Positions 27,965 to 46,202 of a stretch of 64,000 nucleotides of DNA are shown here, in pieces (positions within the stretch are counted from its first letter, which is position 1; every line of letters begins with the position of its first letter). Both the position numbers and the translations under genes were made by a program. The notes under the pieces are model-generated. The model had not been told where the DNA came from. It was given only the letters and a program-made list of their open reading frames with translations, and did not search any database. This DNA is from Planctomycetota bacterium. GTDB taxonomy: Bacteria; Planctomycetota; Phycisphaerae; UBA1845. The stretch spans positions 3,291 to 67,290 of the forward strand of contig BOJX01000003.1 of NCBI GenBank assembly GCA_016860685.1, read 5' to 3'.

Positions 27965-28534
27965 GGTCAGGAACGATCACGGTTTTTTCGTTCCCGACCT
28001 GCACGTCGGCCCTTGGGTCGTCTATTTGGCGTTCGACCAGCCATGTTCCCGCATTGTGGTTATTCACGATTTCACATAGCACACTCTGGAGCTTGACTCA
28101 ATCGGAAAGGTCGAAACGAATGAATCGTCCGCGACTGATGTCGGTGGGTGACGGATCGGCGAGCATTCCCCTGAATGCCCACTTCCCGACTCACCGAGAC
28201 TCGCAGCCACAGCTTCCTGGACAGTCCGCGCAACACTCGGGAACACCGGTGTCGCCTTCTCGTCTCGTTTCAGTTGATGTTTCTCTTTCAGGGCATCATC
28301 GGCCGTCGCCGTCGCCAGCGCTGTGGGGGCGCGCTCGGCGCCGGCCTTCATGGGTGGTGGTATTGAAGTATAAGAAAGAGCACGGGCGCAACTCGTTGAT
28401 TTATCTCGCTCCGAACCGTCACGACTTGTCGGTCGGCCGTCAGGACCAGTCGGCATACCGACAGAAACCGCTTGCGCCTTTGTCGGTCATGTGCCAGTGT
28501 GTTGACTGTCTACAGACACATTCGGAGGCGGAAA

Positions 28535-29161: not shown

Positions 29162-29460
29162 CCGTGCGTGCGAAGCCAAGGCTCGATGGCTTGCTCCAGG
29201 ATGTCCTGGAGCGTGTTCGGCTCGATGCCCTTCAACTGGCGCTCCAGCGATGCGCGTTTCAGCGCCGCCGCGAAGTCGGCGCGGACGCGAGTGCTGATCG
29301 GAGCGCGGTTCACCACGGCTGCGGCCGGATCGGCGGCAGTCGTCGTCGGCTGTCGGGTTCCGGCATTCGTCTTTCCTGCGTGGATGAACTCCCGGGCAAC
29401 GGCCGCATCAACTCCCGGCGTCGCTTTGAGTCCATCGGTGAGTGAGCGGCGTTCGACCAT
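29149..29460 (-). CDS. Small ParA partner (ParG/ribbon-helix-helix-like)
   Basis: Directly downstream of parA. C-terminal PISTRVRADF..ALKRASL...LQDILEQAIE. Confidence 0.65.
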   Translation of the reverse strand: MVERRSLTDGLKATPGVDAAVAREFIHAGKTNAGTRQPTTTAADPAAAVVNRAPISTRVRADFAAALKRASLERQLKGIEPNTLQDILEQAIEPWLRTHGYLS

Positions 29461-29472
29461 GTGTCCCCTTCC

Positions 29473-30150
29473 CTACGTTGATGCCGGCTGCCGTCGCATG
29501 GACGGCTTCGCGGTCTTGCGGACCGCCTCGGGGACCAGCTCGCGGAAGAGCCGGTCAACTTCGATGGCTGCCTCCCGCGCGCGTGATCCCAGTTGCCAGA
29601 CGACCGCCGCCTGGCCCGGCGCGTCGGCGTAAATCTGGCGCAGCGTCATGAACGTCGGCGTGATGGGAAGCTTCAGCAAAGCCGCGGCTTCCCGCATGTC
29701 CTGCGTGAGCCGGTAGTTTTTTCCGACCATGCTGAGCACGATCTTGGCCTTGGGCATCCCGGAGCGAATCTTCTGCGCCTGGCGCAGCACCTTCGTGGCC
29801 GCGTCAAGCGCCCGGATTTCCAGCATGGATGCCTTGCACGGAACGATCGCCGTATCCGCCACGAGCAGCAACGCCCTGCTCGTTTCGGCAAGGCTCCCCG
29901 GCCCGTCGGCCACGACGTAGTCGGTGTCCTGGGCGAGCATCGGCAGGTCGCTGATGATGTCGTCCGGGTCGCGTAGGCAAAGCGCCTTGACCTGCGGAGC
30001 GGCCTCACGAATCCACTGCGACGATGACTGTTGGGTATCGCAGTCGGCGAGCGTCACCCGGTGGCCCTGTTTGTCGAGCCAAGCGGCCAGGTGGACGGCG
30101 AGTGTCGATTTCCCGACCCCGCCCTTGGAGTTCGCCACGGCGATAATCAT
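29473..30150 (-). CDS. parA: Type Ib ParA partition ATPase
   Basis: MIIAVANSKGGVGKST deviant Walker A, DCDTQQS, VADGPG. Confidence 0.9.
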   Translation of the reverse strand: MIIAVANSKGGVGKSTLAVHLAAWLDKQGHRVTLADCDTQQSSSQWIREAAPQVKALCLRDPDDIISDLPMLAQDTDYVVADGPGSLAETSRALLLVADTAIVPCKASMLEIRALDAATKVLRQAQKIRSGMPKAKIVLSMVGKNYRLTQDMREAAALLKLPITPTFMTLRQIYADAPGQAAVVWQLGSRAREAAIEVDRLFRELVPEAVRKTAKPSMRRQPAST

Positions 30151-30393
30151 GCTTGATTGCTAGCACGATTTCATGCTGGCTGGCAAGCAGTATTTATTGA
30201 CTGCATGATGGCACGCAGTCATGCCAGCAAGTCGGATGGCTGGCAAGCAGGCATGTCAGCTTTCCATCCATCTGTCTTTCTGGCTGTCCTGCTCTCCATC
30301 ATGCTGTCCGTCATGCCTGCAATCATGACGGACAGCAAGCCTGCATGATGGCTGGCTTGCCGTCTGGCTGTCATGCTTTCATGCTGGCTTTCA
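30151..30393. repeat. Degenerate short-period repeat tract (centromere-like) upstream of parA
   Basis: Many CATGC/GCATG/GCTGGC/GCAAGC units with apparent 4/8-nt periodicity, e.g. GGCTGGCAAGCAG twice. Confidence 0.6.
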
Positions 30394-30427
30394 CGGTGAA
30401 AGACGGCCTAAGCACCGCTTAGGGGAG

Positions 30428-32281: not shown

Positions 32282-32763
32282 GGTGAAGTCTCCTTTTCTT
32301 GTTTCCGGCCGCGCCCATCGCGGCCTGATGGCACGCGGAAACCAGCCGCCTCAGCCGGAGCGACCTTCGGGAGCGCACGGGTCACAGCGGAAAACGGGAG
32401 GGACCCGGTCTGCAACGCAGTGAAGATTGGGAGGAACCGGTTTTCTGCTTGACCTGGACGGCGGCGGCTGTAGCGATGCCGTCGATCAGGCCGTGTGGTG
32501 CGCAGGAAACGACAAGAGAAGGGGGGACAAGCCTGCCGCACGAGCCGCGACCGGGCGACCGCCCGCGCCGACGGTGCGCAGCGATAGCCGTGCTTCTGGC
32601 TCGCATCTGCACTGGCCTTACGTGCAAGGGCTGGCGTTCATCGGTTCTCGTGCCCGAGGGATGCGACTGAAGCGAGCGGGAGTGATTACTGATTCATGGG
32701 CGGGGCGACGGCCAAGCACCGGAATAGCAAGCGGGATCAATAGGATATCATAAACCGCGCCGA

Positions 32764-32781
32764 CTGTCACACAAATGGCAC
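32764..32781 (+). promoter_or_regulatory. Pho-box-like tandem half-sites
   Basis: CTGTCAC-ACAA-ATGGCAC. No clear -10 at 10 nt. Confidence 0.45.
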
Positions 32782-33209
32782 GCACAAGTACGTCGGCCCG
32801 TGTTGAACGCATGTGATCGACAACGGATGGGGGAAAGATGGATAGAGGTGACTGGCCCTGCCGACACATGGCGCGTTCCGGCGCTCATGACATCACTGCC
32901 GGAACGAGTCGCGCCGGCCTCACAAGCGGCACGCGATAGCGGGCCTGCCGTGGCGACGCCGCAGGAAACTCCGCTGGGGGAGTGGCTGCCCCCGGAATGC
33001 CGGGCGGATGCTCGCGCGCAGGAGGTGCTCGCAGAGCTGGTTCGGCGTAGTGCGGCGCGTGCCGCCAGCGTGCGCGAAGCCGCAAAGGGCCTCGGTGGGC
33101 CAGGGCGGTGACATGTGTCATGAGGAGTGTTTTGGTACACCTTGAAATGGAATGTCCGCCCGTCGGAGATACGCCTATTGTGATGATGGCACAATCAGGG
33201 CGTTACGGC

Positions 33210-33665
33210 TCAGGCAAGAGTCAACAGGACAAACAATAGCGCAAGAACCGCCGCGTAGGTAAGGCTGGGAGCACAGGCGGCGCGGCGGCGCGCAAAGCAG
33301 GCCGCGGCTACGCCAAGGCCGACGGCGGCAGACAGCAAGGGGATGAGGTGCGGCGCGCGGAGTGGGATGCTCGGGTGAATCGGCCAAGCACCCACGATAC
33401 ACAGTGTTCCCGCGAAGGCCGTGAGCGCACCAACGGCGTAACAGCGCTTGGTCAAGGTGACCGCGGCGACACACAGCGCCAGCAGGCCAACGCGGCGGGC
33501 CACCTCAGGCGCGACATGAAGTTGGAGCTGAACAAACAGGATCGTGGACGCGGCGAAGAGGGCTACAAGCCCGCACGCCAGGACGATCCGGCGCTCGACG
33601 GGCGCCGTCTCCAATGGCTCACTGGGAGGCAGGTCAGGACGGGGGTTGCCTGGTCGGGTGTTCAT
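33210..33665 (-). CDS. Hypothetical membrane protein
   Basis: 151 aa with several hydrophobic segments, preceded by an 11-bp-period box at 33710-33727. Confidence 0.5.
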   Translation of the reverse strand: MNTRPGNPRPDLPPSEPLETAPVERRIVLACGLVALFAASTILFVQLQLHVAPEVARRVGLLALCVAAVTLTKRCYAVGALTAFAGTLCIVGAWPIHPSIPLRAPHLIPLLSAAVGLGVAAACFARRRAACAPSLTYAAVLALLFVLLTLA

Positions 33666-33751
33666 CTCGGGGCTCGCTCGGTGGTGCGAACGATGTGTAG
33701 CACGTCATGGTAAATAAATGGTAAACGGTGATGCAGGTAAGTCGCCGAGAC

Positions 33752-33769
33752 CTGTCACATAATTGTCAC
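33752..33769 (+). promoter_or_regulatory. Pho-box-like tandem half-sites upstream of the ankyrin gene
   Basis: CTGTCAC-ATAA-TTGTCAC, close to the E. coli pho box consensus. Confidence 0.65.
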
Positions 33770-33817
33770 ACACTGGCCCGTTGAAGTGTGCTACCGGTGG
33801 AGGTGCATGGGAGGGTT

Positions 33818-34442
33818 GATGGGGACACGGGACGGGTCAGACGACGACGTCGAGGGAAGCGGGGCATCGAGCGGCGCGCTTCCGAAAGGCGGCGCGCACG
33901 AGAACAAGAGTCGCACGCGGGAAAAGCGCCGCAGGGCGTGGATGAAGAGCGATCGACGGACCGCACTTCACCAGGCCGTGTATGGCGACTCTGCGGAGGT
34001 GCGAGCATTGATCAGCGGCGGGGCAAACGTGAACGCGAGGGACATCGATGGAGACACCCCGCTGCACAGCGCGGCGCATTCGGGCAACCGTTCGGCAATC
34101 GAAATCCTCATTCACGCCGGAGCCAACGTCAACGCGGCCGATCGGAACAGGAACACTCCGCTGCACTACGCGGCGAGCGGAGATGCAGAGGTGATTCGGA
34201 CGCTGCTGAAACTCGGGGCCAAGCCGGACGTACAGAACGTCAACGGCATCACGCCGCTTCATTGGGCGGCATTCTCTGGCAACGTGAAGGGTGTAAAGGC
34301 ACTGCTCGCCGCAGGGGCAACGTGCGACAAGAGAGACGTGCGGCAGCGGACGCCGGAAGCCGTCGCTCGGGAGTGCGGCCATGCGGCGATTGGCGAGATT
34401 CTCCGCGCGGCCGCGAAGGGTCGTGGTGACCAGGGCCCCTGA
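33818..34442 (+). CDS. Ankyrin-repeat protein
   Basis: TALHQAV, GDTPLHSAA, NTPLHYAA, GITPLHWAA and GANVNA repeats. Start uncertain. Confidence 0.9.
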
Positions 34443-34514
34443 CGTGTCCTGGGCGGTCGGCCGCTGGGACTGGCGCGGTGAAAGCCCGTGAAAGAAACAC
34501 GCCCCGCGTGCGTT

Positions 34515-34548
34515 CGGTAACGATTTCTCAACCATTGCGGTGTAGAGT
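34515..34548 (+). promoter_or_regulatory. Tandem-half-site promoter of the relaxase (predicted leaderless)
   Basis: CGGTAAC-GATT-TCTCAAC, 10 nt, TAGAGT, 6 nt, ATG (34555). Confidence 0.55.
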
Positions 34549-34554
34549 CGAGTG

Positions 34555-37194
34555 ATGCTCCGCATCACTCAGAACAGCACGGCTGAAAGAGCCAAGAGTT
34601 ACTATTCCACCGCCGATTACTACACGGAGGGACAGGAGCTTGTCGGCCTCTGGCGCGGCAAGGGTGCGGAGCGCCTGGGCCTTTCGGGAAGCGTGGAGCG
34701 CCAACAGTGGGACGCGCTCTGCGACAACCGCAACCCGGCGACGGGCGGCGTGCTGACGCCGCGGCAGAAGCGGGACCGTCGCGTCGGCTACGACTTCAAC
34801 TTCCACGTTCCCAAAAGCGTGTCGGTGCTCTACGGCCTCACGCGGGACGATCGCATTCTGCAAGCGTTCCGCGATTCGGTGGACGTGACGATGGAGGACA
34901 TCGAAGCGGACATGCAGACGCGCGTACGGGCCAAGGGCAAGAACACCGACCGCACGACCGGCAACATGACCTGGGGCGAGTTCGTGCACTTCACGGCCCG
35001 GCCGGTGGACGGTATCCCGGACCCTCACCTTCACGCCCACTGCTTCTGTTTCAACCAGACCTGGGACGCGGAAGAGTCTCGCTGGAAGGCGGGTCAGTTC
35101 GCGGGGATCAAGCGCGACGGCGAGTTCTTCGAGGCCGTGTTCCATTCCCGCCTGGCACGGCGGCTCGAGGAACTCGGGCTGCCAGTGGAACGAACGAGGC
35201 GCGGCTGGGAGATTCGCGGCGTGCCGCAGTCGGCGGTCAAGAAGTTTTCGCGGCGGACGGCGCTCATCGAAGAGAAGGCAAGAGAGAAGGGCATCACGAA
35301 TCCCGATGCCAAGGGTGAACTCGGCGCGAAGACGCGCGAGCGGAAGGTCAAGGACCTGTCGATGGATGAACTCCGCGAACAGTGGGCCTCGCGGCTCTCG
35401 CCGGAGGAACTCGCGGCGCTCACCGCCGTCCGGGGCCGGCTCGGCGGCGACGGCATCCCGGAGGACGGCCGGCTGGTCGCGGAGTCGGTGCTGCACGCGG
35501 TCGGACATTGCTTCGAGCGCAGCTCGGTGGTGCCGGAGCGCAAGGTCCTGGCGGAAGCGCTCAAGCGTTCCCTCGGTTCTGCATCGCCGGATGTTGTGCG
35601 TCGGGCGGTGGACGCGCAGGGCCTTGTCGTCGGCGAGCGGAACGGACGGCGCATGGCGACGACGCGCGAGGTACTCGCTGAAGAGCGGAAGATGATCGAC
35701 TTCGCGCGTAAGGGAAGGGGAGCGTGCCGCACGCTCGGTTCTGCAAACCGCGCGTTCACGCGCGACTGGTTGAACGCCGGCCAGAAGCAAGCCGTGCGGC
35801 ACCTGCTCGAATCACGCGACCGCGTGATGCTGGTCCGCGGCGCCGCGGGTACCGGCAAGACGACGATGATGAAGGAAGCCGTCGAAGCGATCGAAACTGC
35901 CGGGACGCCGGTCCACACCTTCGCGCCGTCGGCGGATGCCAGCCGCGGCGTGCTGCGGGAAGAGGGATTCGGCGATGCCGACACGGTGGCCCGGCTGCTT
36001 ACCGATCAGTCCTTGCAGGCACAGGTGGCCGCGGGCGTGGTCTGGATTGACGAGGCAGGCTTGCTCGGCACGCGGATGATGGGTCAGGTTTTCGACCTGG
36101 CCGACCGGCTTGATTGCCGGGTGGTCCTCTCCGGCGATCGCCGTCAGCACGGCAGTGTCGAGCGCGGGGCGGCGCTGCGGCTGCTGGAGGAAGAGGCAGG
36201 TCTCAAGCCCGCGGATATCCGCGACATTCAGCGCCAGAAAGGCGACTACATGTCGGCGGTGCGGGCGCTCTCCGACGGCCGCATTGACGATGGCTTCCGC
36301 CAGCTCGACAAGCTCGGGTGGATTCGCGAAGTAAACGAGACGGAGCGCTACAAGTCGCTGGCGGAGGACTACGTCGCCACAATCGCCGACGAGAAGACTG
36401 CGCTCGTGGTGTCGCCCACGCACCTGGAGGGGGAATGGATCACCGATGAAATCCGCGCACGTCTGAAGCAGGCCGGCCGGCTCCAGGGCGGCGAGCATCG
36501 GCTGCTCACGCTGGAGAACGCGAACCTCACGGAGGCAGATCGCGCGGAGGCGGCGAGCTACGAACCGGGCGACGTGCTGGTGTTCCACCAGAACGCGACG
36601 GGATTTCGCAAGGGCGAGCGCGTCGTCGTCGGCGACGATCCACTGCCGCTCGACCATGCGGACAGGTTCCAGGTATTCCGCCAAGGCGTTCTGCCGGTCG
36701 CTGCCGGCGACATCCTGCGTATCACGCGCAATGGCATGACGGCCGACGGTGAGCACCGGCTCAACAACGGTGCGCTTTACACGGTCAAGGGATTCACGAA
36801 GGCCGGCGATATCCGGCTCACGAACGGATGGACGATCTCGAAGGACTATGGGCACCTGGCCTATGGGTACGTCGTGACAAGCCACGGCTCACAAGGAAAG
36901 ACGGTCGATCGCGTGTTCATCGGCCAGTCGTCGGAGTCCCTGCCGGCGTCGTCGCGCGAACAGTTCTACGTCTCGGTGTCGCGCGGGCGCGAGCGGGCGA
37001 CGGTGTACACGGACGACAAGGAAGCCTTGCTCGAAGCCGTGAGTCGTTCGGACGAACGGCTGACGGCGACGGAATTCATCGAAGGCCGCGAGATTCGCGA
37101 CCGCGCCGCTGCGCTGCACCGCATGGAGGGACTGGCCGGCCGCGACAATGTGCCGGCGCACCCGGAACGGGAAGGAGTGAACCATGACAGATAA
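34555..37194 (+). CDS. trwC: MOBF relaxase-helicase (TrwC/TraI family)
   Basis: N-terminal YY..ADYY, YDFNFHVPKSVS, HUH motif DPHLHAH, FSRRT, helicase GAAGTGKT, WIDEAG, YVVTSHGSQGKTVD, FYVSVSRGR. Confidence 0.93.
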   Translation: MLRITQNSTAERAKSYYSTADYYTEGQELVGLWRGKGAERLGLSGSVERQQWDALCDNRNPATGGVLTPRQKRDRRVGYDFNFHVPKSVSVLYGLTRDDRILQAFRDSVDVTMEDIEADMQTRVRAKGKNTDRTTGNMTWGEFVHFTARPVDGIPDPHLHAHCFCFNQTWDAEESRWKAGQFAGIKRDGEFFEAVFHSRLARRLEELGLPVERTRRGWEIRGVPQSAVKKFSRRTALIEEKAREKGITNPDAKGELGAKTRERKVKDLSMDELREQWASRLSPEELAALTAVRGRLGGDGIPEDGRLVAESVLHAVGHCFERSSVVPERKVLAEALKRSLGSASPDVVRRAVDAQGLVVGERNGRRMATTREVLAEERKMIDFARKGRGACRTLGSANRAFTRDWLNAGQKQAVRHLLESRDRVMLVRGAAGTGKTTMMKEAVEAIETAGTPVHTFAPSADASRGVLREEGFGDADTVARLLTDQSLQAQVAAGVVWIDEAGLLGTRMMGQVFDLADRLDCRVVLSGDRRQHGSVERGAALRLLEEEAGLKPADIRDIQRQKGDYMSAVRALSDGRIDDGFRQLDKLGWIREVNETERYKSLAEDYVATIADEKTALVVSPTHLEGEWITDEIRARLKQAGRLQGGEHRLLTLENANLTEADRAEAASYEPGDVLVFHQNATGFRKGERVVVGDDPLPLDHADRFQVFRQGVLPVAAGDILRITRNGMTADGEHRLNNGALYTVKGFTKAGDIRLTNGWTISKDYGHLAYGYVVTSHGSQGKTVDRVFIGQSSESLPASSREQFYVSVSRGRERATVYTDDKEALLEAVSRSDERLTATEFIEGREIRDRAAALHRMEGLAGRDNVPAHPEREGVNHDR

Positions 37195-37600
37195 GTCGAT
37201 TCTCCAGCGCTACGCGATGCGAAACGGTGACGCGGCAAACGGCAACGCCACGCCAGCCGACGTGGAGGGTACCGATGACCTGGGCGCATTCGGGTGGCTC
37301 CGCGGGATTCGGGACCGGGCCGTGAGCCTGGAGCTGCGGAAGAAGGACGGCAACATCCTGGCCGTGAGCTACGGCTACATGGACAAGGCGGAGTTCGACC
37401 CGTCCGAAGGCATCACGGTGTCGGTCGGCGGACAGAAGATCCGCATCAAGGGCCGCAATCTCAACGCACCCGTCAGGCCGACCGTTCGGTTATTCGAGGG
37501 CATCACGCGGCATCGCGTACCCTGGATTCGCGAGGCGGCTCACGTTGAAAGCATGCACGCCGATGACAACGTGACGATCATCGACAGCCTCGACTGGTAG
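37184..37600 (+). CDS. Hypothetical protein coupled to the relaxase
   Basis: 138 aa overlapping the relaxase stop, GAAGGAG RBS. Confidence 0.75.
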   Translation: MTDKSILQRYAMRNGDAANGNATPADVEGTDDLGAFGWLRGIRDRAVSLELRKKDGNILAVSYGYMDKAEFDPSEGITVSVGGQKIRIKGRNLNAPVRPTVRLFEGITRHRVPWIREAAHVESMHADDNVTIIDSLDW

Positions 37601-37603
37601 CGG

Positions 37604-37637
37604 CGTTAACGGTTCGGTAACCGGTTTCGGTTAAACT
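37604..37637 (+). promoter_or_regulatory. Tandem-half-site promoter of pilin-like gene 1
   Basis: CGTTAAC-GGTT-CGGTAAC, 10 nt, TAAACT. Confidence 0.6.
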
Positions 37638-37665
37638 GATGCCTGATCGTCGGCATGAGAGGAAG

Positions 37666-38457
37666 ATGCAGCAGCGCATAGTACACGAAGGCCGAAGTGC
37701 TTCGACGGGTATGACGATCATGGAACTGACCGTCGGACTTGTCGTGATCGGCCTGCTCGCAGGGATGATCCTGGTGGGGCGCGAACTACTGGAGTCCGCG
37801 ACCATGCATCGCGCTGTATCGCAAGTTGGCCGGGTTCAAACCGGCATCAGCCTGTTCCGGGCAAAGTACAGCGCGTTCCCTGGAGACTTCGCCAAAGCGA
37901 GCCAGTATTGGCCCGGACAAGGCATAATCGATGGCGACGGTGATGAACGGATCGGCGGCGGGTACCTGAGCGACGTGAGCGCGGTGGCCGATGGATCGCT
38001 GGAGTGTTACAACGCATGGAACCACTTGGCGGCGACAGGTGTGCTGGAGTGGCACGCGGAACCCGTGAGTGCCCCTCCGACCGCGGCGCAGACCGTGGCG
38101 ATGCCGGGCGTGCTGGATCGCTCCTATCTTGGCCTGCATCATGACGGAGCGACCTACGGGTACGGCGTTGAGAGCAATTACATCACGCTGACCCGGCTGG
38201 CGCTGGGAACCACGCGTGAATCATTTCGTGGTATCGTGTATGGGATGCTGACGCTCCCGGGGGTCAGTGACGTCGGCCTTCGGCCGGCGGTGGCCGCCCG
38301 GTTTGATGCCAAGGCGGACGACGGACAGCCGCTCACCGGGGCGGTAACGGCCGCATATCCGGGTGGCGCCTGCTCTGACGCGAGCGCGAACACCTATCTG
38401 TATGCCCAGACTCGAAATAGCTGCGGATTGTGGATCGCGTTCTCAGCCGCACAGTGA
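37666..38457 (+). CDS. Prepilin-type N-terminal cleavage/methylation protein 1
   Basis: G|MTIMELTVGLVVIGLLAG, FRAKYSAFPGD, DGDGD, DAKADDGQPLTG, C-terminal Cys pair. Confidence 0.85.
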   Translation: MQQRIVHEGRSASTGMTIMELTVGLVVIGLLAGMILVGRELLESATMHRAVSQVGRVQTGISLFRAKYSAFPGDFAKASQYWPGQGIIDGDGDERIGGGYLSDVSAVADGSLECYNAWNHLAATGVLEWHAEPVSAPPTAAQTVAMPGVLDRSYLGLHHDGATYGYGVESNYITLTRLALGTTRESFRGIVYGMLTLPGVSDVGLRPAVAARFDAKADDGQPLTGAVTAAYPGGACSDASANTYLYAQTRNSCGLWIAFSAAQ

Positions 38458-38638
38458 CGGGCCGTGGCCATCTGGCTGATGCTCAACCTCGTAGAGCCCA
38501 TGCTGGTCCGCCTTGCGCACCTCGCTAACCGGATCAGGGGGTGGCCGGGTGTGGCCGCGGTCTGCTGACAGCGCGGGCGGCAATCGCGAGCGTTGCCGCG
38601 AGACCGAAACGCCCGAGTCTTGGAATCCATGTACGCAT
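38443..38638 (-). pseudogene. Possible frameshifted small secreted protein
   Basis: MRTWIPRLGRFGLAATLAIA (signal-like) joins PALSADRGHTRPPPDPVSEVRK... after a 1-nt shift, downstream of a four-half-site box. Confidence 0.35.
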
Positions 38639-38713
38639 AAAGGTCGTTCCCAGTTCGAGCGGCAGCAGGGCACGGTCTGTCGCCTTTCTTACACGTCACT
38701 ACGTTCCTTCACT

Positions 38714-38753
38714 GTGACAGTTTGATGACGGTTCGATGAACAGTCCGTGACAA
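38714..38753 (-). promoter_or_regulatory. Four Pho-box-like half-sites with 11-bp period
   Basis: Minus strand: TTGTCAC-GGAC-TGTTCAT-CGAA-CCGTCAT-CAAA-CTGTCAC. Confidence 0.65.
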
Positions 38754-38828
38754 TCGGCGGCGGCGGGCCACCTGGAAACCATTTGTTAACCACGGCAGCC
38801 ATAGACTGAAGGGAAAGGACACCGGACA

Positions 38829-39584
38829 ATGGCCTTGCACCTAAGCACCGCGCGCCGCGGGTTCACGTTGCTGGAACTGTCAGTCGTGCTGGTTATCATC
38901 GGCCTGGTGGCGGGCGGGATACTCGTCGGCAGCGAGCTGATCGCCCTTGCCGAACTGAAGAGCGTCATGCGGCAGTTGGAGTCTTACAACACCGCGGTAA
39001 ACACGTTTCGCGTCAAGTACGGCGGGCTCCCTGGAGATTTTGTGCAAGCTGTGGAATATGGTCTGGGGGATGCGGGTTGCCCGACCGCGAACCCCTGCCC
39101 CGCGACACCGACGGGATCGTATGACTACGCGGGATGCAATGGGAACGGGAACGGGCGGCTCGATGACCTGGGCGTTGGAACCGACCTCGCGTGGTGCCCT
39201 GAGAACCTGAACTTCTGGCATCATCTGAGCCGAGCGAGCCTGATAGAAGGTTCGTACGACGGCAAAACCCTGACTGGCGGTGGCTGGGAGCCGCAGTACG
39301 GAATATCAAGCCCGGTAACCAAGCTGCGCGGGATCGGCATCTGGGTTATGCTCGATCAGTACTATCTTGGCATCCGGCAGGGGGACGGCGCCCCGCAGCT
39401 CTCGACGAAGGAGGCTGCATATCTGGATGAGAAGATGGATGACGCGCTGCCGCTGACGGGTCGCGTTCGGCTCCTGATCGGATTTGGATGCAATACAGGA
39501 AACAGCTACAACACGCGCGCCCTGCCGGGCGTGACGCCGGAACTCTGCTCGCTGAGGATATCCGGCATCCCTGGGTTCCAATGA
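38829..39584 (+). CDS. Prepilin-type protein 2
   Basis: RRG|FTLLELSVVLVIIGLVAGGILVG, FRVKYGGLPGD, GNGNG, DEKMDDALPLTG. Upstream TGGAAAC-CATT-TGTTAAC, 11 nt, TAGACT. Confidence 0.9.
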   Translation: MALHLSTARRGFTLLELSVVLVIIGLVAGGILVGSELIALAELKSVMRQLESYNTAVNTFRVKYGGLPGDFVQAVEYGLGDAGCPTANPCPATPTGSYDYAGCNGNGNGRLDDLGVGTDLAWCPENLNFWHHLSRASLIEGSYDGKTLTGGGWEPQYGISSPVTKLRGIGIWVMLDQYYLGIRQGDGAPQLSTKEAAYLDEKMDDALPLTGRVRLLIGFGCNTGNSYNTRALPGVTPELCSLRISGIPGFQ

Positions 39585-40450
39585 ATGGCGCGCTGGTCGT
39601 GATTGGGTTTGGGCCACGAGGTCCAACGAAACATGCCGCGACAACGAACGTCTGCTTTGTAAGCGGTTTCACTCTCGTCGAGCTTTCGATCGTGCTGCTT
39701 ATCATCGGATTTGTGGCAGGCGGCATACTTGTCGGCAGGGCGCTCGTGCATACGGCGGAAATCAGAAGCGTGCTGACGCAGCTCGGGCACTATGATGCTG
39801 CGGCAATGACGTTCAAGAACAAGTACGGCGGCCTGCCCGGCGATCTCGCCCAGGCTGAGGAAGCGGGGCTGGCCGAAGCGGGGTGTCCCGACGTATACGG
39901 TTACGGGGATAATGAGTGCTTCTACGCCGTGGTCCTGCGCGCCGGGTGCAGCGGAAACGGCAACGGCATGTTCGACGACGGTAACGGGGCAGCGAATTAT
40001 CTGAATTGCCCGGAGAACCTCAACTTCTGGTATCACCTGAAGCAGGCAGGGCTGCTGGACGGGCCGGCCGATGGTAAAACCGTGTCGGACATAAACCCCG
40101 TATGGGGACGGCCGATCTTCGGCGCCTCGGCACCGCTGACGCGCCTGCGCAATGTCGGTATCATGGTGGCGACCTACACACCACTGCCGCCCCGTCGTGC
40201 GAATTACTACACACTTGGTCTGTCCGATCGCTACGATATATTGCCGTCAGCGCGGACGAAGGCGCTTCGCGGCCACGAAGCATTCACGATAGACAACAAA
40301 CTGGATGACGGGCTTCCGACAACAGGCAGAGTGCTGGTCTATGTTCTATCAATGCCGCAATGCATTGCGGCCGGCCAGTACAGGATGGCTGACGAGACCA
40401 GCAACTGCGGCTTGTTTATCAATACGGCCGTGCTGGGCGGCCAGCAGTAA
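39581..40450 (+). CDS. Prepilin-type protein 3
   Basis: G|FTLVELSIVLLIIGFVAGGILVG, FKNKYGGLPGD, CPENLNFW shared with gene 2, DNKLDDGLPTTG. ATGA coupling. Confidence 0.88.
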   Translation: MNGALVVIGFGPRGPTKHAATTNVCFVSGFTLVELSIVLLIIGFVAGGILVGRALVHTAEIRSVLTQLGHYDAAAMTFKNKYGGLPGDLAQAEEAGLAEAGCPDVYGYGDNECFYAVVLRAGCSGNGNGMFDDGNGAANYLNCPENLNFWYHLKQAGLLDGPADGKTVSDINPVWGRPIFGASAPLTRLRNVGIMVATYTPLPPRRANYYTLGLSDRYDILPSARTKALRGHEAFTIDNKLDDGLPTTGRVLVYVLSMPQCIAAGQYRMADETSNCGLFINTAVLGGQQ

Positions 40451-40501
40451 TTGTCTGCCATCGACTCGGCCGCAGGGCGGCACTACGGAACGCCGATCAA
40501 G

Positions 40502-40535
40502 TCCTAACCATTTGTTAGGCGTTGCCTGGTATGAT
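40502..40535 (+). promoter_or_regulatory. Tandem-half-site promoter
   Basis: TCCTAAC-CATT-TGTTAGG, 10 nt, TATGAT. Shares AACCATTTGTTA with 38777-38788. Confidence 0.6.
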
Positions 40536-40569
40536 CGGGGAGACGATCATTGAAGGGGGGTATTGCGCC

Positions 40570-40771
40570 GATGACACAGAAGGGCAACGGCCAGTGGGTC
40601 CAGGGAATGCGCGCCGGCGCGATGACGCTGGTCGCTTTGGTTACGGGCACGCACGCGGTGTGTGCGCAAGTAATGAGTCCGGATGTGCCGGAAATTCCGG
40701 CTGGGACGGCACCCGCGGTATTGGCGGCGCTGTTGGCGCTGACGCTCTGGGTGAGGAATCGGCGGCCATGA
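40570..40771 (+). CDS. Minimal PEP-CTERM/VPEID-CTERM-like peptide
   Basis: Signal peptide (AVCA|), QVMSPD, then VPEIPAGTAPAVLAALLALTLWVRNRRP. Confidence 0.6.
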
Positions 40772-41128
40772 TAGCGCCTTCGGGAACCGGGAACCAAACG
40801 CGACAGGTTCGTTATCCGGGAAACACCCACAGGGACGTCAGCCTGCGATGTCGCAGCTGGCCATGCCGCGGAAAGGGGGGCCGGGGCAGATGCTGCCGTG
40901 ACCTGGTTTCCGTCCGAGGTGCGCTGCCGCATCAGCTCCCCCACAACCGAATGCCGGTTGGCACGTGCAAGGTCCTCTGGCGTGAATGTCGATGTCCCGC
41001 CGGCGCGCGTTGGCGCCGGCATCGAGCAGCAGTCTGGCATCGTAAGCAAGGTGCCGATAAGGGCTCATCATCCGCGCCGGTCCCCGCCCTCATCAGTTAT
41101 CGCCGCGGCCCCCGACAGGCGCGTGTGG

Positions 41129-41542
41129 CTATTGGCACGTGAGGGTGCCACTGATCACGTTGCCGCTGATCGAGATGAACGGCACCGGCGTACCTTCTCC
41201 CATGGCGTATTGACATAGAGCGTCAGCACCCTGATTGCAGAGCGCCGGCGCATAATCAGGGAAGTACAGTGAGGTCGTGAGGCTCAGGACCTCGATGCCG
41301 TTGAGAATGCCGCGGTACTGAACCCAGAATACGCCTTGCTGATCGATACTGGATTTGCAGGAAATGGAGGCGCTCGATGGAAGGACGGCAGAGGCCGCGT
41401 CGTCCGCCGCTGGCTCGGCGGCCACAGTGGTGGAACCGGACATCGTGGGCTTTCTGGCCTCCGCCTGGCTCGTCATGGAAAGAACCGCCGCTAGCGCCAC
41501 AAGGCCAGCGATGCCAGCCACTCTTATTGGTGAAGATTGCAT
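41129..41542 (-). CDS. Small secreted protein (4 Cys)
   Basis: Signal peptide ending AEA|, GGAG RBS, own boxed promoter. Confidence 0.65.
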   Translation of the reverse strand: MQSSPIRVAGIAGLVALAAVLSMTSQAEARKPTMSGSTTVAAEPAADDAASAVLPSSASISCKSSIDQQGVFWVQYRGILNGIEVLSLTTSLYFPDYAPALCNQGADALCQYAMGEGTPVPFISISGNVISGTLTCQ

Positions 41543-41625
41543 ACATTTCTCCGTTGATAGGTTGATAGAACTGGGTCGCAACGCCGGTGAGGCCAAGCGA
41601 CATGAGGCGAATCCCTCACGATCCC

Positions 41626-41670
41626 AGCCTACCATAGAAGTGTGACATATTTATGACGCTTTGATGAAGG
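41626..41670 (-). promoter_or_regulatory. Pho-box-like promoter
   Basis: CCTTCAT-CAAA-GCGTCAT-AAAT-ATGTCAC, 10 nt, TAGGCT. Confidence 0.7.
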
Positions 41671-41813
41671 TTCTGGGATGGCTGCACCGGCACAACGAGC
41701 GGCGCTTGACCGCGGAGGGGGCTTGGCCGGTCGCCCCACCGATTGGCGGCGAGCGATGAAGGCACGCGCAGCAACGGCATGGGCTACGCCGGCGCGGGTT
41801 GTGGAGGATCCGC

Positions 41814-42191
41814 TCATTTCATTCCAGCGAGGGCGCACTTGGCAAGGCACTCGGCGAAGGTAAGTCCCCGCGAAACGTCATTGCCAATCGTGCAGTACGT
41901 GTCGGTACCAAACCGGTCGGTCGAGACGTGGTAAGAGCACTGAAACTGCCCGTTGATGTACCCCCAGTGCATAACGCAGTTGCTACCGGGAATGTAGTCA
42001 AAGTTGAGGCCCTGAAACGGCACCCTGGTATCGCCGCCGCCGCAAGACAGTTCGCAACTGTAACAGTCGATGGCAGGATTGTACGACGCGTGCCCCCTAA
42101 TCAGGCTGATGGTCGCAAGGGCGGGCGTACTGGCGAGAAGAAGCATCAGCACACCAGCTACGGCAGATATCTTGAAGTGAGCGTGTTCCAT
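41814..42191 (-). CDS. Small secreted Cys-rich protein (8 Cys)
   Basis: Signal peptide ending ALA|, GAGG RBS, CxxCxxxC and CxxxC patterns. Confidence 0.7.
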   Translation of the reverse strand: MEHAHFKISAVAGVLMLLLASTPALATISLIRGHASYNPAIDCYSCELSCGGGDTRVPFQGLNFDYIPGSNCVMHWGYINGQFQCSYHVSTDRFGTDTYCTIGNDVSRGLTFAECLAKCALAGMK

Positions 42192-42209
42192 AATAGCCTA
42201 CCTCACTGC

Positions 42210-42605
42210 CTATGGCCTGGGACAAGTGAAGCTCTGGTATGGCAATGCGTTCACGAAGACCGTGACAGTTACAGAGTCTGTTACTTCCGGAACGATCTCG
42301 CCGTACTTGGTCCAGCACTCGTTGCAGTATTGCTCAGTCGTTGCCGGTGCCGTCAATGGCCCAAGGTAGGTTCCAGGCATTGGGGAATAACACGCTGCCG
42401 TTACCTTGTTCTCCAACGGAGCAGGGGTTCCGCCGGACGGATTCGAACCGAATGTGCCCGAGGGGCAGTTGAGCCCCAGCGGATTCAAGAGACAGGGCGG
42501 CTGGCCGCCGGCTGCGTGAGCGGAAAAGTGAGCGGTCGCAAGCAGCGCGACGGCTGCTGCTGTGACGGCGCGTCCGGTAAGACGGCGGTAAGTACGATGT
42601 GTCAT
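42210..42605 (-). CDS. Small secreted Cys-rich protein (6 Cys)
   Basis: Signal peptide ending AHA|, CxxC, first gene of a two-gene unit. Confidence 0.7.
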   Translation of the reverse strand: MTHRTYRRLTGRAVTAAAVALLATAHFSAHAAGGQPPCLLNPLGLNCPSGTFGSNPSGGTPAPLENKVTAACYSPMPGTYLGPLTAPATTEQYCNECWTKYGEIVPEVTDSVTVTVFVNALPYQSFTCPRP

Positions 42606-42635
42606 AGTGTCATCCTGTAGTATGTTGATGAGATC

Positions 42636-42691
42636 ATCGTAACACCGTACTGTGACTGTTGTGTGTCCGTTATGTGACATATTTGTGACAA
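42636..42691 (-). promoter_or_regulatory. Pho-box-like promoter with four half-sites
   Basis: TTGTCAC-AAAT-ATGTCAC-ATAA-CGGACAC-ACAA-CAGTCAC, 10 nt, TACGAT. Confidence 0.72.
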
Positions 42692-42866
42692 TGCGCGCGG
42701 ACTGGCTGCGATAGGCGTACTCAAGTGCCGGGGAAATCAGAATGCCAGGGCTAGGCTACTTCGGTATTCGCCATTTCGCAGCGCAAACGAGCTGCGGGCT
42801 TCAGACCGCGCCCGCAGGACCGCGACCGTACCAATCGCTGCCGGATCTTGCGCCGCAATCGTACGA

Positions 42867-43610
42867 GGGTCATGACTAGCTGAGCCTCCCGGAATCGTCC
42901 GGATAGGCTGGTTTTCCCGTGAAGAACCGCTATGTCGCCCGTTCACGAGTTTCAGAGCACGTTGTCCGCCGGTTCCTGCGGCACGTCGCCGCCGACCTCA
43001 CCGCCGTCCAGATCGCCCAGCCCACCGGCCTCAACCGCAACACCGTCAACCGCCTGCTCGCGGCCCTGCGGCTCCGCATGGCCGAGGCGTGTGAACGCGA
43101 GAAGCCCTTCCGGGGGCGGTGGAGGTTGACGAGAGCTACTTCGGACCCCGCCGCGTCAAGGGCAAGGCCGGCCGTGGCGCCAGCAAGAAGACCCCCGTCT
43201 TCGGCGTCTTCAAGCGTCACGGCAAGGTCTACACCGAGGTCGTGCCCGACTGCTCGAAAGCCACTCTCTTGCAGGCGATCCGGGGCAAAGTCTCACTCGA
43301 CAGCATCATCCACTCCGACGGCTGGGGCGGCTACGACGGCCTGGTCGACATGGGCTACAAGAAGCACCTGCGTGTCGATCATGCCAGGAACGAGTTCAGC
43401 AGCCGTCGCGTCCGCGGCAACCACATCAACGGCATCGAGGGCTTCTGGGGCTACGCCAAGACCCGCCTGGCACGCTTCCGCGGTATCCATCCCGACACCT
43501 TCCTGTTCCACCTCAAAGAGTGCGAGTTCCGCTTCAACCATCGCCGCCACGACCTCTACAAGGTCCTCCTGCTACTGTGCCGCGAACACCCGCTCAGCTA
43601 GTCATGACCC
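42867..43610 (+). mobile_element. IS1595-family (IS1016-like) insertion sequence, 744 bp
   Basis: Perfect 19-bp terminal inverted repeats GGGTCATGACTAGCTGAGC and an 8-bp target duplication TCGTACGA (42859-42866 and 43611-43618). Confidence 0.92.
42919..43601 (+). pseudogene. IS1595 transposase, frameshifted near 43111-43118
   Basis: MKNRY...LNRNTVNR...KPFRG is in one frame and VEVDESYFG...HSDGW...HINGIEGFW...ECEFRFN in another. The break is at CCGGGGGCGGTG. Confidence 0.85.
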
Positions 43611-43765
43611 TCGTACGAATAGGTATTTAGGATGGGCGCGCTTCGTCCGCGGGGGGCCATCGTCCAGTCTTCCTAGCCAGGGCGAAGGCGGTGGCCGCGA
43701 GGGAGACGCCGCTACCACCGCCCACGGCCCTCACGAATGATACGTCCCGCGTGGGTGTTGCCGGC

Positions 43766-44797
43766 CTATCGGCCACGCATGCCCGGGCCGGGAATGTCGC
43801 GGCGCAGGTCTCCCTGGGACAGGGACCGACGGCAACGCTCCAGTGCAAGGCTCTCCAGATGATGAACATAGGTCTTGGACAGCCCCAGCTTCTGGCCTAT
43901 TTCCTTGCACGTATGACACGGTCCGTTGTCGAGACCGAAACGAAGGCGTAAAACCTCACGTTCGCGGGGCTTCAGGGTGTGGAGCACGCGCCGGAGCTGC
44001 GCGGTCTCCTCGGCGGCCATCATAGAGGCCCCCGGAGGGGCTTCGCGCTTGCCGTCGGGGTGTGAATCCAGCATCCCGTCGTCGGCCGGCGCTATCAGCA
44101 TGGATCGGGAGACCGTGTTCCTCACATCCGAAGCGAGGAACGACTTGAGTCCGCCTTGGACGAAGGTGGTGAAGCAGGCATTGCGATCTGGACGGTAGCG
44201 GAAGAGCGCCCGGTCGAAGCGATCGTACGCCAGGTCCAATACATCGTCATAGTCAATGCGTGGAGTATATCGGTCGTACACGCGCTGTGCCGCGACGCGG
44301 ATGAGCCGGTCGTGTGCGAGCTTCAGGGTGCCGCCAAGCAGGCCGCCCGCGGGCGTGCGAAGTATCGCCGCATATCGGCGCTGCACGGCGTCCTTGTCCT
44401 GAAAGGCCACACCGACGGCGGAGGTAATGTCCGGCGGCGGATAGAGTGCGTGGTCGCTCTCCAACGCGATCCACTGCGTAATCAATGATGAGACAATGGC
44501 TTGGTGCAGCGGGTACATCCGCGAGTCGCCCGTATGATCGGACAGGGCGCGCGCGGCATCCTCGATTCCCTTTTTCGCGTGCCGGATGGCTTGAGGGCCG
44601 TCGGCCTGCCGGCGAACGATTGCGCCGATGCCGTCGCCGAACGCGAGGTCGTCGAGCATAGTTGCGTTGTCGGCGTTCCGGGAATACCTGCCGTGGTCGG
44701 TGTATTGATCGACGAACCGCTCCCAAAGTGGAGCAAGTTCAGCGGGACCGTGGAACGGGACGATTCTTGACCCAATCGAATCCAAGCCGCCCGTCAC
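43766..44797 (-). CDS. Sigma-70-family factor-like protein with unusual N-terminal half
   Basis: Region-2-like ALFRYRPDRNACFTTFV and region 4 LKPREREVLRLRFGL...CKEIGQKLGLS...ESLALERCR. Confidence 0.75.
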   Translation of the reverse strand: MTGGLDSIGSRIVPFHGPAELAPLWERFVDQYTDHGRYSRNADNATMLDDLAFGDGIGAIVRRQADGPQAIRHAKKGIEDAARALSDHTGDSRMYPLHQAIVSSLITQWIALESDHALYPPPDITSAVGVAFQDKDAVQRRYAAILRTPAGGLLGGTLKLAHDRLIRVAAQRVYDRYTPRIDYDDVLDLAYDRFDRALFRYRPDRNACFTTFVQGGLKSFLASDVRNTVSRSMLIAPADDGMLDSHPDGKREAPPGASMMAAEETAQLRRVLHTLKPREREVLRLRFGLDNGPCHTCKEIGQKLGLSKTYVHHLESLALERCRRSLSQGDLRRDIPGPGMRGR

Positions 44798-44861
44798 AAG
44801 TGCCTCAAGCCCAACGATGACGGGAGAACGGCACGCGAGCGGGAAGGCAGGGATGTGCGCT

Positions 44862-45071
44862 TCATCGACTTCTGCGCCGGTCGCGGTGATCGTAATTGCG
44901 GGTATTCAACTCGCGTAGAAGCGGCTGAAGAATCTGCATCACGGAGGCTGCGGCCATGACGCCCATGCAGACCATCGCGACCTTGTTGAATACAACGGCG
45001 TCGGCGGCCGGCGCGAAGCGGGCCATCTGCTGGGCCGTGCTGGCGACGTGGAAAGGACTTGGTCCGTTCAT
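44862..45071 (-). CDS. Small membrane protein upstream of the sigma-like gene
   Basis: 69 aa, GGGAGAG RBS, one hydrophobic segment, boxed promoter. Confidence 0.6.
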   Translation of the reverse strand: MNGPSPFHVASTAQQMARFAPAADAVVFNKVAMVCMGVMAAASVMQILQPLLRELNTRNYDHRDRRRSR

Positions 45072-45104
45072 GCTCTCCCCCGGGGAGTTGTGACGTATCC
45101 CCCG

Positions 45105-45138
45105 ACAGTACCACAGATGTGTTACCGTTTTATGACAA
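45105..45138 (-). promoter_or_regulatory. Pho-box-like promoter
   Basis: TTGTCAT-AAAA-CGGTAAC, 10 nt, TACTGT. Confidence 0.68.
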
Positions 45139-45186: not shown

Positions 45187-45408
45187 CTACATGGCAAGCA
45201 GTCGGCGCACGTACGCGCGGCTGACACCGAGCACGACGGCGATCCGGGTGAGCGAGAACCCTTTGCCGGCGAGGTGGTGCGCCAGCGCGGCCTTGCGGCG
45301 TTCAACCGTGAGGGCGGCCAGAGGCGCAATCGTGCGAGCGGTCATGAATGCCAGCGTACCATGCGGATGGTTAACAACCGATAAAGACACGCCCTCACCG
45401 TTAAGCAT
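45187..45408 (-). CDS. Small HTH protein
   Basis: GFSLTRIAVVLGVSRAYVRRLL. Start uncertain. Confidence 0.45.
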   Translation of the reverse strand: MLNGEGVSLSVVNHPHGTLAFMTARTIAPLAALTVERRKAALAHHLAGKGFSLTRIAVVLGVSRAYVRRLLAM

Positions 45409-45429
45409 CGCCGATGTGTCGTGATAGGG

Positions 45430-45607
45430 TCTACCTCAACCTGATGTCAGACACTTCCGCTCTACGCCGTCAGGTTGGAGTCGCTTCAAGTATTTGTTGA
45501 CAGGTGCAGTGCGATTTCATAGACCTGATCTGACATTTCACAGGGGGGTGCGGCGGTGTCGATTGTCAAAGTGCTCTTCAGCATTCTGTCAAAGTCCTCT
45601 TCAGTAT
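45430..45607. promoter_or_regulatory. Putative res site of the resolvase
   Basis: CAACCTGA...TCAGGTTG inverted repeat and TGTCAAAGT(G/C)CTCTTCAG(C/T)AT direct repeat (45564, 45587) directly upstream of the resolvase. Confidence 0.55.
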
Positions 45608-46202
45608 GACGGTATCGGGGAAGGGGCAACGGATCGGGTACGTGCGAGTCAGTACCCTCGATCAGAACACGGAGCGACAACTCGAAGGCGTCGATCTCGA
45701 CCGCGTGTTCACGGATACCGCCTCCGGCAAAGACACGGATCGGCCGCAGCTTCAATCGCTGCTCGCCTACGCGCGCGAAGGCGACACGATCGTCGTCCAC
45801 AGCATGGACCGTCTGGCCCGCAACGTGGACGACCTTCGCCGGCTCGTCCAGGAGCAGACGAGGCGCGGCATCCGGGTCCAGTTCATCAAGGGGGACCTGC
45901 TCTTCACTGGCGAGGAGTCGGCGACGGCGAACCTGATGCTCACGGTGCTCGGCGCCTTTGCAGAGTTTGAGCGGGCGCTGATCAAGGAACGGCAGCGTGA
46001 AGGCATTGCGCTTGCGAAGCAGCGCGGCGTCTATCGCGGTCGGCGGAAGAAACTGACGCCGGAGCGCGTTGCCGAACTTCGCGCTCGTGCCGCGAAGGAA
46101 AAGAAGGCGGGACTCGCCCGCGAGTTCGGGATCAGCCGCGAGACGCTCTACCAGTACCTCCGCGAGCCGGAGAAAGCGGAGGCGGAATGCTCGACCTCCT
46201 GA
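45606..46202 (+). CDS. Tn3-family resolvase/invertase (small serine recombinase)
   Basis: IGYVRVST.DQN, SMDRLARN, AEFERALIKERQREGI, C-terminal HTH. Confidence 0.93.
   Translation: MTVSGKGQRIGYVRVSTLDQNTERQLEGVDLDRVFTDTASGKDTDRPQLQSLLAYAREGDTIVVHSMDRLARNVDDLRRLVQEQTRRGIRVQFIKGDLLFTGEESATANLMLTVLGAFAEFERALIKERQREGIALAKQRGVYRGRRKKLTPERVAELRARAAKEKKAGLAREFGISRETLYQYLREPEKAEAECSTS

Follow-up and report, generated by a model that had tools for sequence, protein, structure and literature searches.

Tandem 11-bp-period boxes in place of the -35 element at promoters of a planctomycete integrative mobilisable element

Genomic setting and gene content

The present analysis concerns a stretch of 64,000 nucleotides (hereafter the window; contig C3, BOJX01000003.1, positions 3291-67290) from a planctomycete metagenome bin of 3.92 Mb, with a G+C content of 65.5% and a completeness of 90%. 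The region studied, the transfer and cargo section of an integrative mobilisable element, contains ten promoter-like sites (32765-45137), each with two to four hexamer boxes arranged head to tail at an 11-bp period. This promoter design, in which boxes take the place of the -35 element, is real and non-random, is conserved in related elements and is phased to the -10 hexamer.

Genes were called by hand from open reading frames (ORFs) and their third-position G+C content, without a gene finder. The island encodes ArdC, a methyltransferase-helicase, a RepL-like protein, and ParA with a small ribbon-helix-helix (RHH) protein; a DNA methyltransferase-like protein, recognised solely by a PPY-type motif in the translation and without a match in Pfam, a TrwC relaxase, a 138-amino-acid (aa) protein, three pilin-like and several small secreted proteins; an IS1595 transposase, and a sigma-70-family protein whose gene accompanies that of a 69-aa membrane protein; and a small resolvase, a WGR protein, a HEAT protein, ParB, a coupling protein with a TraG-D_C domain and a large serine recombinase. 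The relaxase gene (34555-37194, + strand) specifies a TrwC-type protein with a helicase domain, of the MOBF family (TrwC, 3.1e-70; AAA_30, 6.6e-47). Coupled to it is the gene of the 138-aa protein (37184-37600, +), which is beta-rich and kept in 29 of the 31 loci found to carry relatives of the window relaxase. These 31 related loci, which together with the pstS loci discussed below are labelled L0xx (the genomes compared being G0xx), come almost entirely from Planctomycetota bins and genomes (Phycisphaerae, Planctomycetia). At the right end of the element, the gene of the large serine recombinase (54009-55502, +) abuts a tRNA-Pro(GGG) gene (55483-55559, -).

The island thus combines a MOBF relaxase, a coupling protein and an integrase at a tRNA gene, and no mating-pair apparatus was seen, with no VirB4-like match among the scanned window ORFs, which is the make-up of an integrative mobilisable element. 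In 21 planctomycete chromosomes, 29 MOBF relaxases have been described, often accompanied by a coupling protein and lacking a full mating apparatus (preprint, 10.1101/2024.01.22.576637), and the gene make-up of those relaxase islands agrees with that of the window element. The main text of that preprint, in which the word "promoter" occurs 0 times, does not address their regulation; it describes conjugation between members of Planctomycetota as not reported.

Tandem-box sites in the window

The first-pass annotation of this DNA had listed eleven box coordinates, with four, three and four half-sites at 38714, 41642 and 42652 and a hybrid of two box types at 45121. All eleven hold boxes as described (32765-45137), and both the half-site counts and the hybrid are borne out by the sequence. 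Read towards the downstream gene, the first box type is TGTCAC or TGTCAT after an A-rich spacer, forming an 11-bp unit that is present in two to four copies per site; the second (GGTAAC, GTTAAC, GGAAAC or CTCAAC, hereafter TTAAC-type) occurs in pairs, also with an 11-bp period. Six -10 hexamers (TAGGCT, TACGAT, TACTGT, TAGAGT, TAAACT and TATGAT) start exactly 10 nt past the last box, as had been noted. The earlier description needs small corrections, namely an inverted pair at 40503, a weak site at 33710 and a gap of 11 nt at 38774.

The TTAAC-type boxes precede the relaxase and the pilin-like genes. The relaxase promoter (34516-34557, +) consists of GGTAAC (34516-34521), CTCAAC (34527-34532), a 10-nt gap and TAGAGT (34543-34548), followed after 6 nt by the ATG at 34555; as this start codon lies only 6 nt after the -10, the relaxase mRNA would be leaderless, in agreement with the earlier proposal. 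Downstream, GTTAAC-N5-GGTAAC-N10-TAAACT (37605-37637, +) lies before a pilin-like gene (37639-38457) whose prepilin-type N-terminus was read in the translation, Pfam giving no match, and GGAAAC-N5-GTTAAC-N11-TAGACT (38774-38807, +) lies before a second pilin-like gene (38829-39584; N_methyl, 1.3e-06). The inverted pair CCTAAC-N5-GTTAGG, with TATGAT 10 nt on (40503-40535, +), stands before the gene of a 66-codon secreted microprotein (ATG at 40572, to 40771), in which a C-terminal P-E-I-P motif, a hydrophobic stretch and basic residues form a PEP-CTERM-like tail. A weak member, the GGTAAA-N5-GGTAAA pair at 33710-33726 (+), lies between a divergent membrane-protein gene (33210-33665, -) and an ankyrin-repeat gene, fits the geometry loosely and has no -10 at the 10-nt offset on the + strand.

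A direct repeat of the form CGTGAAA..CCGTGAAAGAAAC is conserved in most related loci just 5' of the relaxase promoter (34470-34500 in the window), and it persists even where the type of relaxase promoter differs; it may be part of the origin of transfer (oriT) or a site for an accessory protein.

The TGTCAC-type arrays precede genes of secreted Cys-rich proteins, the gene of the ankyrin protein, and the pair formed by the sigma gene and that of the 69-aa membrane protein. On the - strand, the three-unit array TTCAT, GTCAT, TGTCAC (boxes 41642-41674; 26.0 bits with a two-unit weight matrix) is followed after 10 nt by TAGGCT with a TGn extension (whole site 41626-41674) and lies before a small secreted protein gene (41129 to ~41543). 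The four-unit array TGTCAC, TGTCAC, GGACAC, AGTCAC (boxes 42652-42695; 26.7 bits) has TACGAT with TGn at the same distance (42636-42695, -) and precedes the genes of two small Cys-rich secreted proteins (42210 to ~42606 and 41814-42191). The hybrid promoter TGTCAT-N5-GGTAAC (boxes 45121-45137), again with a 10-nt gap and TACTGT preceded by TGn (45105-45137, -), stands before the genes of the conserved 69-aa membrane protein (44862-45071) and the sigma-70-family protein (43766-44797); the related loci L021 and L037 contain this hybrid as well.

Three further arrays depart from this layout. The two-unit array TGTCAC-N5-TGTCAC at 33753-33769 (+), before the ankyrin-repeat gene (33786-34442), has the top matrix score genome-wide (28.2 bits) and no TAnnnT at 10 or 22 nt; likewise, TGTCAC-N5-TGGCAC at 32765-32781 (+; 20.9 bits), 5' of an unconserved 103-codon ORF (32800-33111), has no TAnnnT at either offset. 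The four-unit array TGTCAC, GTTCAT, CGTCAT, TGTCAC at 38714-38752 (-; 26.3 bits) has CGTAGT at +10.

These arrays were accompanied by two minor observations. Behind each of the arrays at 32765 and 33753 (32765-32830 and 33753-33800) comes a similar GGCCCGT..TTGAA stretch, which might represent another type of downstream promoter element. The array at 38714 faces only a 34-codon ORF, and a transcript from it would run antisense to the 3' end of the pilin-like gene at 37639-38457, so that it may drive an antisense RNA (38460-38752, -).

Chance controls and phasing to the -10 hexamer

The comparison with shuffled sequence that the first-pass annotation had suggested came out clearly in favour of the motif. 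Exact KGTMAY-N5-KGTMAY occurs three times in the window against a mean of 0.12 after dinucleotide shuffling, and 13 times against 4.73 when one mismatch is allowed, with 0 of 100 shuffles reaching either count; nine of the 13 one-mismatch matches fall within 32765-45137. Across the 3.92-Mb genome, GTCAY-N6-GTCAY gives 47 matches, four of them at 33754-42674 of the window, while the two-unit weight matrix at a threshold of at least 15 bits gives 34, of which ten, including the top four, lie at 32760-45121. When the 64-kb window is scanned with this matrix, only the six array sites at 32765-45137 pass.

The phasing was assessed on 40 non-redundant array sites from the window and the 31 related loci. 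A TAnnnT hexamer starts 10 nt after the last box in 12 of the 40 and 22 nt after it in seven, any other offset up to 31 nt being represented at most twice; a TGn precedes the -10 in eight of the 12 sites with the 10-nt gap. The 22-nt class, found mostly in the relatives, is longer by about one helical turn. Upstream regions of host tRNA genes carry canonical TTGAC(A/G)-N17-TAnnnT promoters; since the housekeeping promoters of the host are canonical, the box promoters genuinely lack a -35 element. On the same ground, and because arrays of three or four units misfit a sigma contact, boxes serving as an extracytoplasmic-function (ECF)-type or unusual housekeeping -35 were rejected.

Conservation in related elements

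At least one two-unit match of at least 15 bits was present in 17 of the 31 related loci and none in the other 14, although some of these matches are coding coincidences, for example at the start codon of the RepL-like gene in L027 and L034. Clear arrays of two to four units with TAnnnT at 10 nt were found in nine loci (L019, L021, L022, L024, L027, L034, L037, L040 and L047), and the genes that follow the arrays in relatives vary, including small Cys-rich secreted proteins, proteins with 41-residue repeats and the 69-aa gene. An ankyrin-repeat gene adjoins an array in the window alone (33753). The 41-residue tandem-repeat cargo, which has PEF and SDP motifs and no family assignment, was seen at L022:13929-15293, L037:16379-18049 and L021:7672-8445, as well as in L040, L029 and L024.

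The two box types grade into one series (TGTCAC, TGCCAC, TGTAAC, GGTAAC, GTTAAC), and conserved hybrid promoters mix them in phase at 45121 of the window and in L021, L037 and L043, which argues for one reader. The layout of the relaxase promoter (box-N5-box, 10-11 nt, TAnnnT, 5-6 nt, ATG) is common to twelve relatives; another group has a relaxase promoter with an ordinary TTGACG -35 instead of boxes.

The gene at 43766-44797 had been proposed as a second regulatory tier. A profile scan established it as a true member of the sigma-70 family, but tblastn at E<=1e-5 gave no relative in any of the 31 related loci; it therefore cannot be a general second tier, and the sigma tier is a local addition to the window element.

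Pho promoters of the host

The genomes define a Planctomycetota Pho box, CTTARC-N5-CTTARC, with a weak -10 following after 10 nt (pstS, pstB-phoU and phoB promoters). Its strict form, TTARC-N6-TTARC, occurs only three times in the window's genome (C137:781, C38:8150 and C132:955), 5' of pstS, pstB-phoU and a PhoB-like regulator gene. Among the related genomes, 17 pstS-type loci were matched in 16 of 31; of the 16 upstream regions inspected, about nine carry CTTARC tandem boxes (L017, L055, L057, L052, L056, L061, L064, L050 and, more weakly, L053), which are absent from the other seven. Three further genomes of two classes also have such boxes 5' of pstS. In most of the host Pho promoters the last box lies 10 nt before the weak -10. 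In G001 and G003 the phoB promoter terminates with GTTAAC-N10-TAGCGT, its proximal box being the same hexamer that occurs in the window promoters at 37605 and 38774.

With a matrix built from 23 host Pho units only, the relaxase promoter of the window scores 17.3 bits (a figure taken from the genome scan) and ranks 12 among the 7.8 million positions of the genome, against 17.8 and 17.2 bits for the pstB promoter and 18.6 bits for the phoB promoter. Relaxase promoters of L041, L030, L032, L039 and L031 reach 19.3-22.7 bits. Other TAAC-type sites of the window score 12.3 bits (40503) and 8.7 bits (38774). In the separate scoring that gave the values for the relatives and the TGTCAC arrays, four of the ten window promoters stood one base out of register.

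The element and host promoters therefore share the box-N5-box-N10--10 geometry as well as GTTAAC and CTCAAC boxes, and the relaxase promoters fall within the score range of the host Pho sites. They differ in that host -10s are weak (for example CACACT, CATACT and TACGTC) and host boxes start with C and have T at position 2, whereas the element arrays contain up to four TGTCAC units. The comparison with host pstS and phoU promoters, which had been put forward as a check, was thus answered in part: geometry and relaxase score agree, but the pstS, pstB-phoU and phoB promoters of the host carry CTTARC or GTTAAC only and no TGTCAC boxes.

The PhoB ortholog of the host is encoded at C132:151-834, the best PhoB match (233 bits, below the cut-off of 296 bits), and has a Pho box in its own promoter; the closest solved relatives of this protein are RegX3 and PhoB. 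Aligned to E. coli PhoB, it keeps Thr194, Val197 and Arg219, while Thr-Ala replaces Arg200-Arg201. No OmpR-type gene was found on contig C3 by six-frame searches with TIGR02154 and PF00486, which gave 31 and five places in the genome, nor among the window ORFs by Pfam and NCBIfam scans, in line with the earlier remark that the window contains no such regulator.

A tandem-binding activator as the favoured reading

The reading that we favour, with a probability of about 0.45, is that the boxes would be tandem sites for a winged-helix activator of the OmpR/PhoB type. Copies of such a protein would line up head to tail along one face of the helix, recruiting RNA polymerase. We infer activation rather than repression, and likewise the identity of the reader. 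Activation is favoured by the fixed distance to the -10 (10 nt or one turn more), by boxes that point towards the gene and by the identical layout of host PhoB promoters; strict helical phasing to the -10 is a requirement of contact with RNA polymerase, whereas a repressor needs overlap only. The TTAAC-type boxes at the relaxase and pilin-like genes are probably read by the host PhoB ortholog, as they are close to the host Pho box CTTARC. The TGTCAC arrays might be read by the same PhoB with relaxed specificity, or by another factor not yet recognised.

The TGTCAC/TGTCAT unit resembles the half-site of the E. coli pho box. The latter consists of 11-bp direct repeats with an AT-rich spacer, which replace the -35 near the -10 (PMC4971064) and to which PhoB binds head to tail (PMC3973317), and the element promoters likewise place 11-bp direct repeats where a -35 would be. 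The planctomycete system differs from that of E. coli in its host box, CTTARC and not TGTCAC, and in a PhoB without the guanine-reading Arg; the element differs in that its TGTCAC arrays are absent from host pst/pho genes and its -10s are strong and TGn-extended. The analogy with PhoB drawn by the first-pass annotation is right as architecture, the geometry being that of the host pstS, pstB-phoU and phoB promoters, and plausible as biology where the relaxase and pilin promoters are concerned; for the TGTCAC arrays, which score unlike Pho boxes, the analogy has no support. Its further proposal that a host two-component signal, possibly phosphate starvation, jointly switches on these promoters is plausible for the relaxase-type TTAAC boxes, and not supported for the TGTCAC arrays, for which no promoter-like intergenic counterpart was found in the host chromosomes checked.

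Several observations weigh against a PhoB-type activator of all sites. With the Pho matrix, the TGTCAC-type arrays score only -5.6 to 3.7 bits. In the host PhoB, Ala replaces E. coli Arg201, the residue bonding the guanine of the half-site (PMC3973317); the replacement fits the G-less host box and speaks against any special affinity of PhoB for TGTCAC, though the loss of the contact could also relax its specificity at that position. No promoter-like intergenic TGTCAC arrays were found outside elements in the genomes checked, and a host activator without host sites would be odd. No OmpR-type domain is encoded in the window or in the element copies of G001 and G003. Most -10s are strong and TGn-extended (8/12), and such promoters need no activator, which fits repression; at 32765 and 33753 the array is not followed by a -10 at either of the expected distances. 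Finally, four metatranscriptome runs from three studies match the stretch as contigs, with flat, low depth over 22-30 of 30 bins; no transcription start is mapped, RNA contigs cannot show starts, and DNA carry-over is possible.

The distribution of the motif outside elements was followed through several genomes. In the window's genome, seven of the nine inspected matches outside the element lie inside predicted coding sequence, the other two (C47, C67) being intergenic. Exact TGTCAY-N5-TGTCAY falls within element copies in G001 (3/3) and G003 (1/1), and G002 has one match with a GC-rich spacer; reversed-pattern controls gave 0. Counts were higher elsewhere (G037, 30; G034, 14; G051, 13; G043, 10; G048, 6). 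Of 20 pairs fetched from G034 and G043, predicted coding sequence accounts for 19, including one within a conserved Hsp70 motif. Twenty stretches fetched from G037 contain 21 matches, most of them chance-like and two or three being element-type arrays. A host TGTCAC regulon in these other genomes was accordingly rejected, the inspected copies being nearly all in coding sequence. Over G034, G037, G043, G048 and G051, the spacing N5 is nonetheless preferred (73 matches, against 15 for N6 and 4 for N4), though nearly all inspected copies are intragenic.

A more specific version of the favoured reading, which we regard as rather doubtful, is that these elements have wired their relaxase together with pilin-like and secreted cargo to the phosphate-starvation regulator of the host by copying the design of its Pho promoters, the TGTCAC arrays then being a relaxed-specificity or high-occupancy Pho box. 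If this were true, phosphate limitation would be the direct trigger of both DNA mobilisation and a surface programme in the phylum. Little is known about the control of gene transfer in Planctomycetota. Among the papers listed by literature searches, none dealt with such arrays or with a planctomycete Pho box. The comparison presented here yields a promoter code, concrete and conserved, for relaxase islands of a widespread family; it also defines the Planctomycetota Pho box comparatively for the first time and makes a link between phosphate status and mobilisation testable. Should the reader of the TGTCAC arrays be borne by the element, it would be a new tandem-binding regulator, and the element promoters are potential parts of genetic tools for the phylum.

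Repression and other alternatives

The boxes could instead be operators of a global repressor encoded by the element, with constitutively strong promoters shut off cooperatively by binding over the -35 region. The precedent is StbA of the IncW plasmid R388: five promoters carry its 9-bp repeats, which are 2 bp apart and hence have an 11-bp period, and each array numbers 2, 3, 5 or 10 of them (10.1101/2022.04.29.490116). R388 is likewise a TrwC-relaxase element with 11-bp-period direct-repeat arrays at several promoters; the sequence of the unit differs, however, no StbA-like gene and no centromere-like array of ten units were found here, and StbA represses, whereas the phasing here points to activation. 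The strong, TGn-extended -10s would suit a repressor, as would the occurrence of promoter-like intergenic TGTCAC arrays inside elements only. Such a protein would have to be found among the element genes, and no cognate DNA-binding regulator was recognised among the ~60 scanned ORFs. The conserved genes include no StbA-like or other small helix-turn-helix gene, no large array precedes any candidate regulator gene, and the fixed 10- or 22-nt phasing to the -10 would be needless for repression.

Most of the element proteins considered as readers were rejected. The 138-aa protein is predicted by AlphaFold (mean local confidence, pLDDT, 81.7) to be beta-rich, with no match in the PDB at E<=0.001, no helix-turn-helix and nothing else that points to DNA binding. 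For the RHH protein encoded beside parA, the likely sites are CATGA repeats 5' of parA, which are a different motif. Neither the sigma-like protein nor a 73-aa helix-turn-helix protein (45187-45408) is conserved in the relatives. The only conserved DNA-binding candidate left is the RepL-like winged-helix protein (28472-29161), present in 11 loci, among them the array-bearing L021, L022, L023, L027, L034, L035, L037 and L040. Against it as a repressor stand the array-less L025 and L036, where the gene also occurs, and L020, an array-bearing locus in which a RepL-like gene is lacking within 10 kb. Overall, we hold repression to be possible, though on the unlikely side.

Alternatively, a second OmpR-family regulator of the host, of the type encoded on C124, could read the TGTCAC arrays while the host PhoB reads the TTAAC boxes. 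Hosts have few regulators of this family (three to five each, with three types common to them), and the C124 type is the only one to keep Arg at the guanine-reading position of the recognition helix, also in the G001 and G003 orthologs. The boxes GGACAC, GTTACA and GTGACA, with an 11-bp period and TAGACT 21 nt on, lie 5' of its own gene. These boxes, which resemble the reverse complement of the array unit, are nevertheless oriented opposite to the element arrays; only a single GTTACA remains 5' of the G001 and G003 orthologs, no other host sites were found, and hybrid arrays would require two different regulators side by side, all of which makes this alternative improbable.

The arrays have also been considered as additional binding sites of the small serine recombinase of the element. 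The res half-site of the Tn3/gamma-delta resolvases starts with TGTC, followed by AT-rich bases. A res-like site of this kind, with TGTCAG-type inverted half-sites, is present at 45420-45605 (+), separate from the arrays and directly before the recombinase gene (45606-46202); in 12 loci, this conserved region of ~130 bp contains three pairs of inverted TGTCAG/TGTCAT/TGTCAA half-sites at differing spacings, and in several relatives an array lies between the recombinase gene and the divergent 69-aa gene. The recombinase was nonetheless rejected as the reader, and the idea is very improbable: the element arrays are direct, dispersed and tied to -10s, with C or T and never G at position 6, whereas res half-sites are inverted, gathered in one place and mostly end in G; the genomes of the array-bearing L034, L027 and L043 (metagenome bins of unstated completeness) returned nothing for the recombinase at E<=1e-10, and L025 and L026 have the recombinase but no arrays.

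That the boxes have no regulatory role, being repeat remnants or iterons of a replication origin, could draw on the weak site at 33710, the two arrays that have no -10 at either usual distance and the RepL-like initiator encoded nearby, but is scarcely credible given that the arrays are conserved across many elements despite differing downstream genes, lie before genes on the correct strand at a fixed distance from the -10, and are spread over 12 kb instead of being clustered at the rep gene.

Other features of the window and genome

About a dozen CATGA repeats, 10-12 bp apart, occupy 30151-30400 upstream of parA (29473-30150, -); they are likely the centromere and operator of the 103-aa RHH protein (29149-29460, -). 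A palindrome, GTGTCA-N6-TGACAC, has five copies in the genome (e.g., C296:1130, C65:11107 and C47:8552) and is possibly the site of a dimeric host regulator.

Contigs from RNA libraries of two studies part from the window at 37500, 37605, 43057 and 43726. These points are module junctions, where the 138-aa gene ends and where the IS1595 insertion begins and ends, which indicates that variant elements with other cargo coexist in the samples.

The left 16 kb of the window (940-16291) carry defence genes. They include a trio resembling a cyclic-oligonucleotide-based anti-phage signalling system (CBASS), made up of a SMODS cyclase (2382-3461), a bacterial HORMA protein (1869-2378) and an AAA ATPase (940-1872), together with a HEPN/DUF499 protein (5196-8555), a DUF1156 methyltransferase (8572-11565) and an SNF2 helicase with a NOV_C domain (12782-16291).

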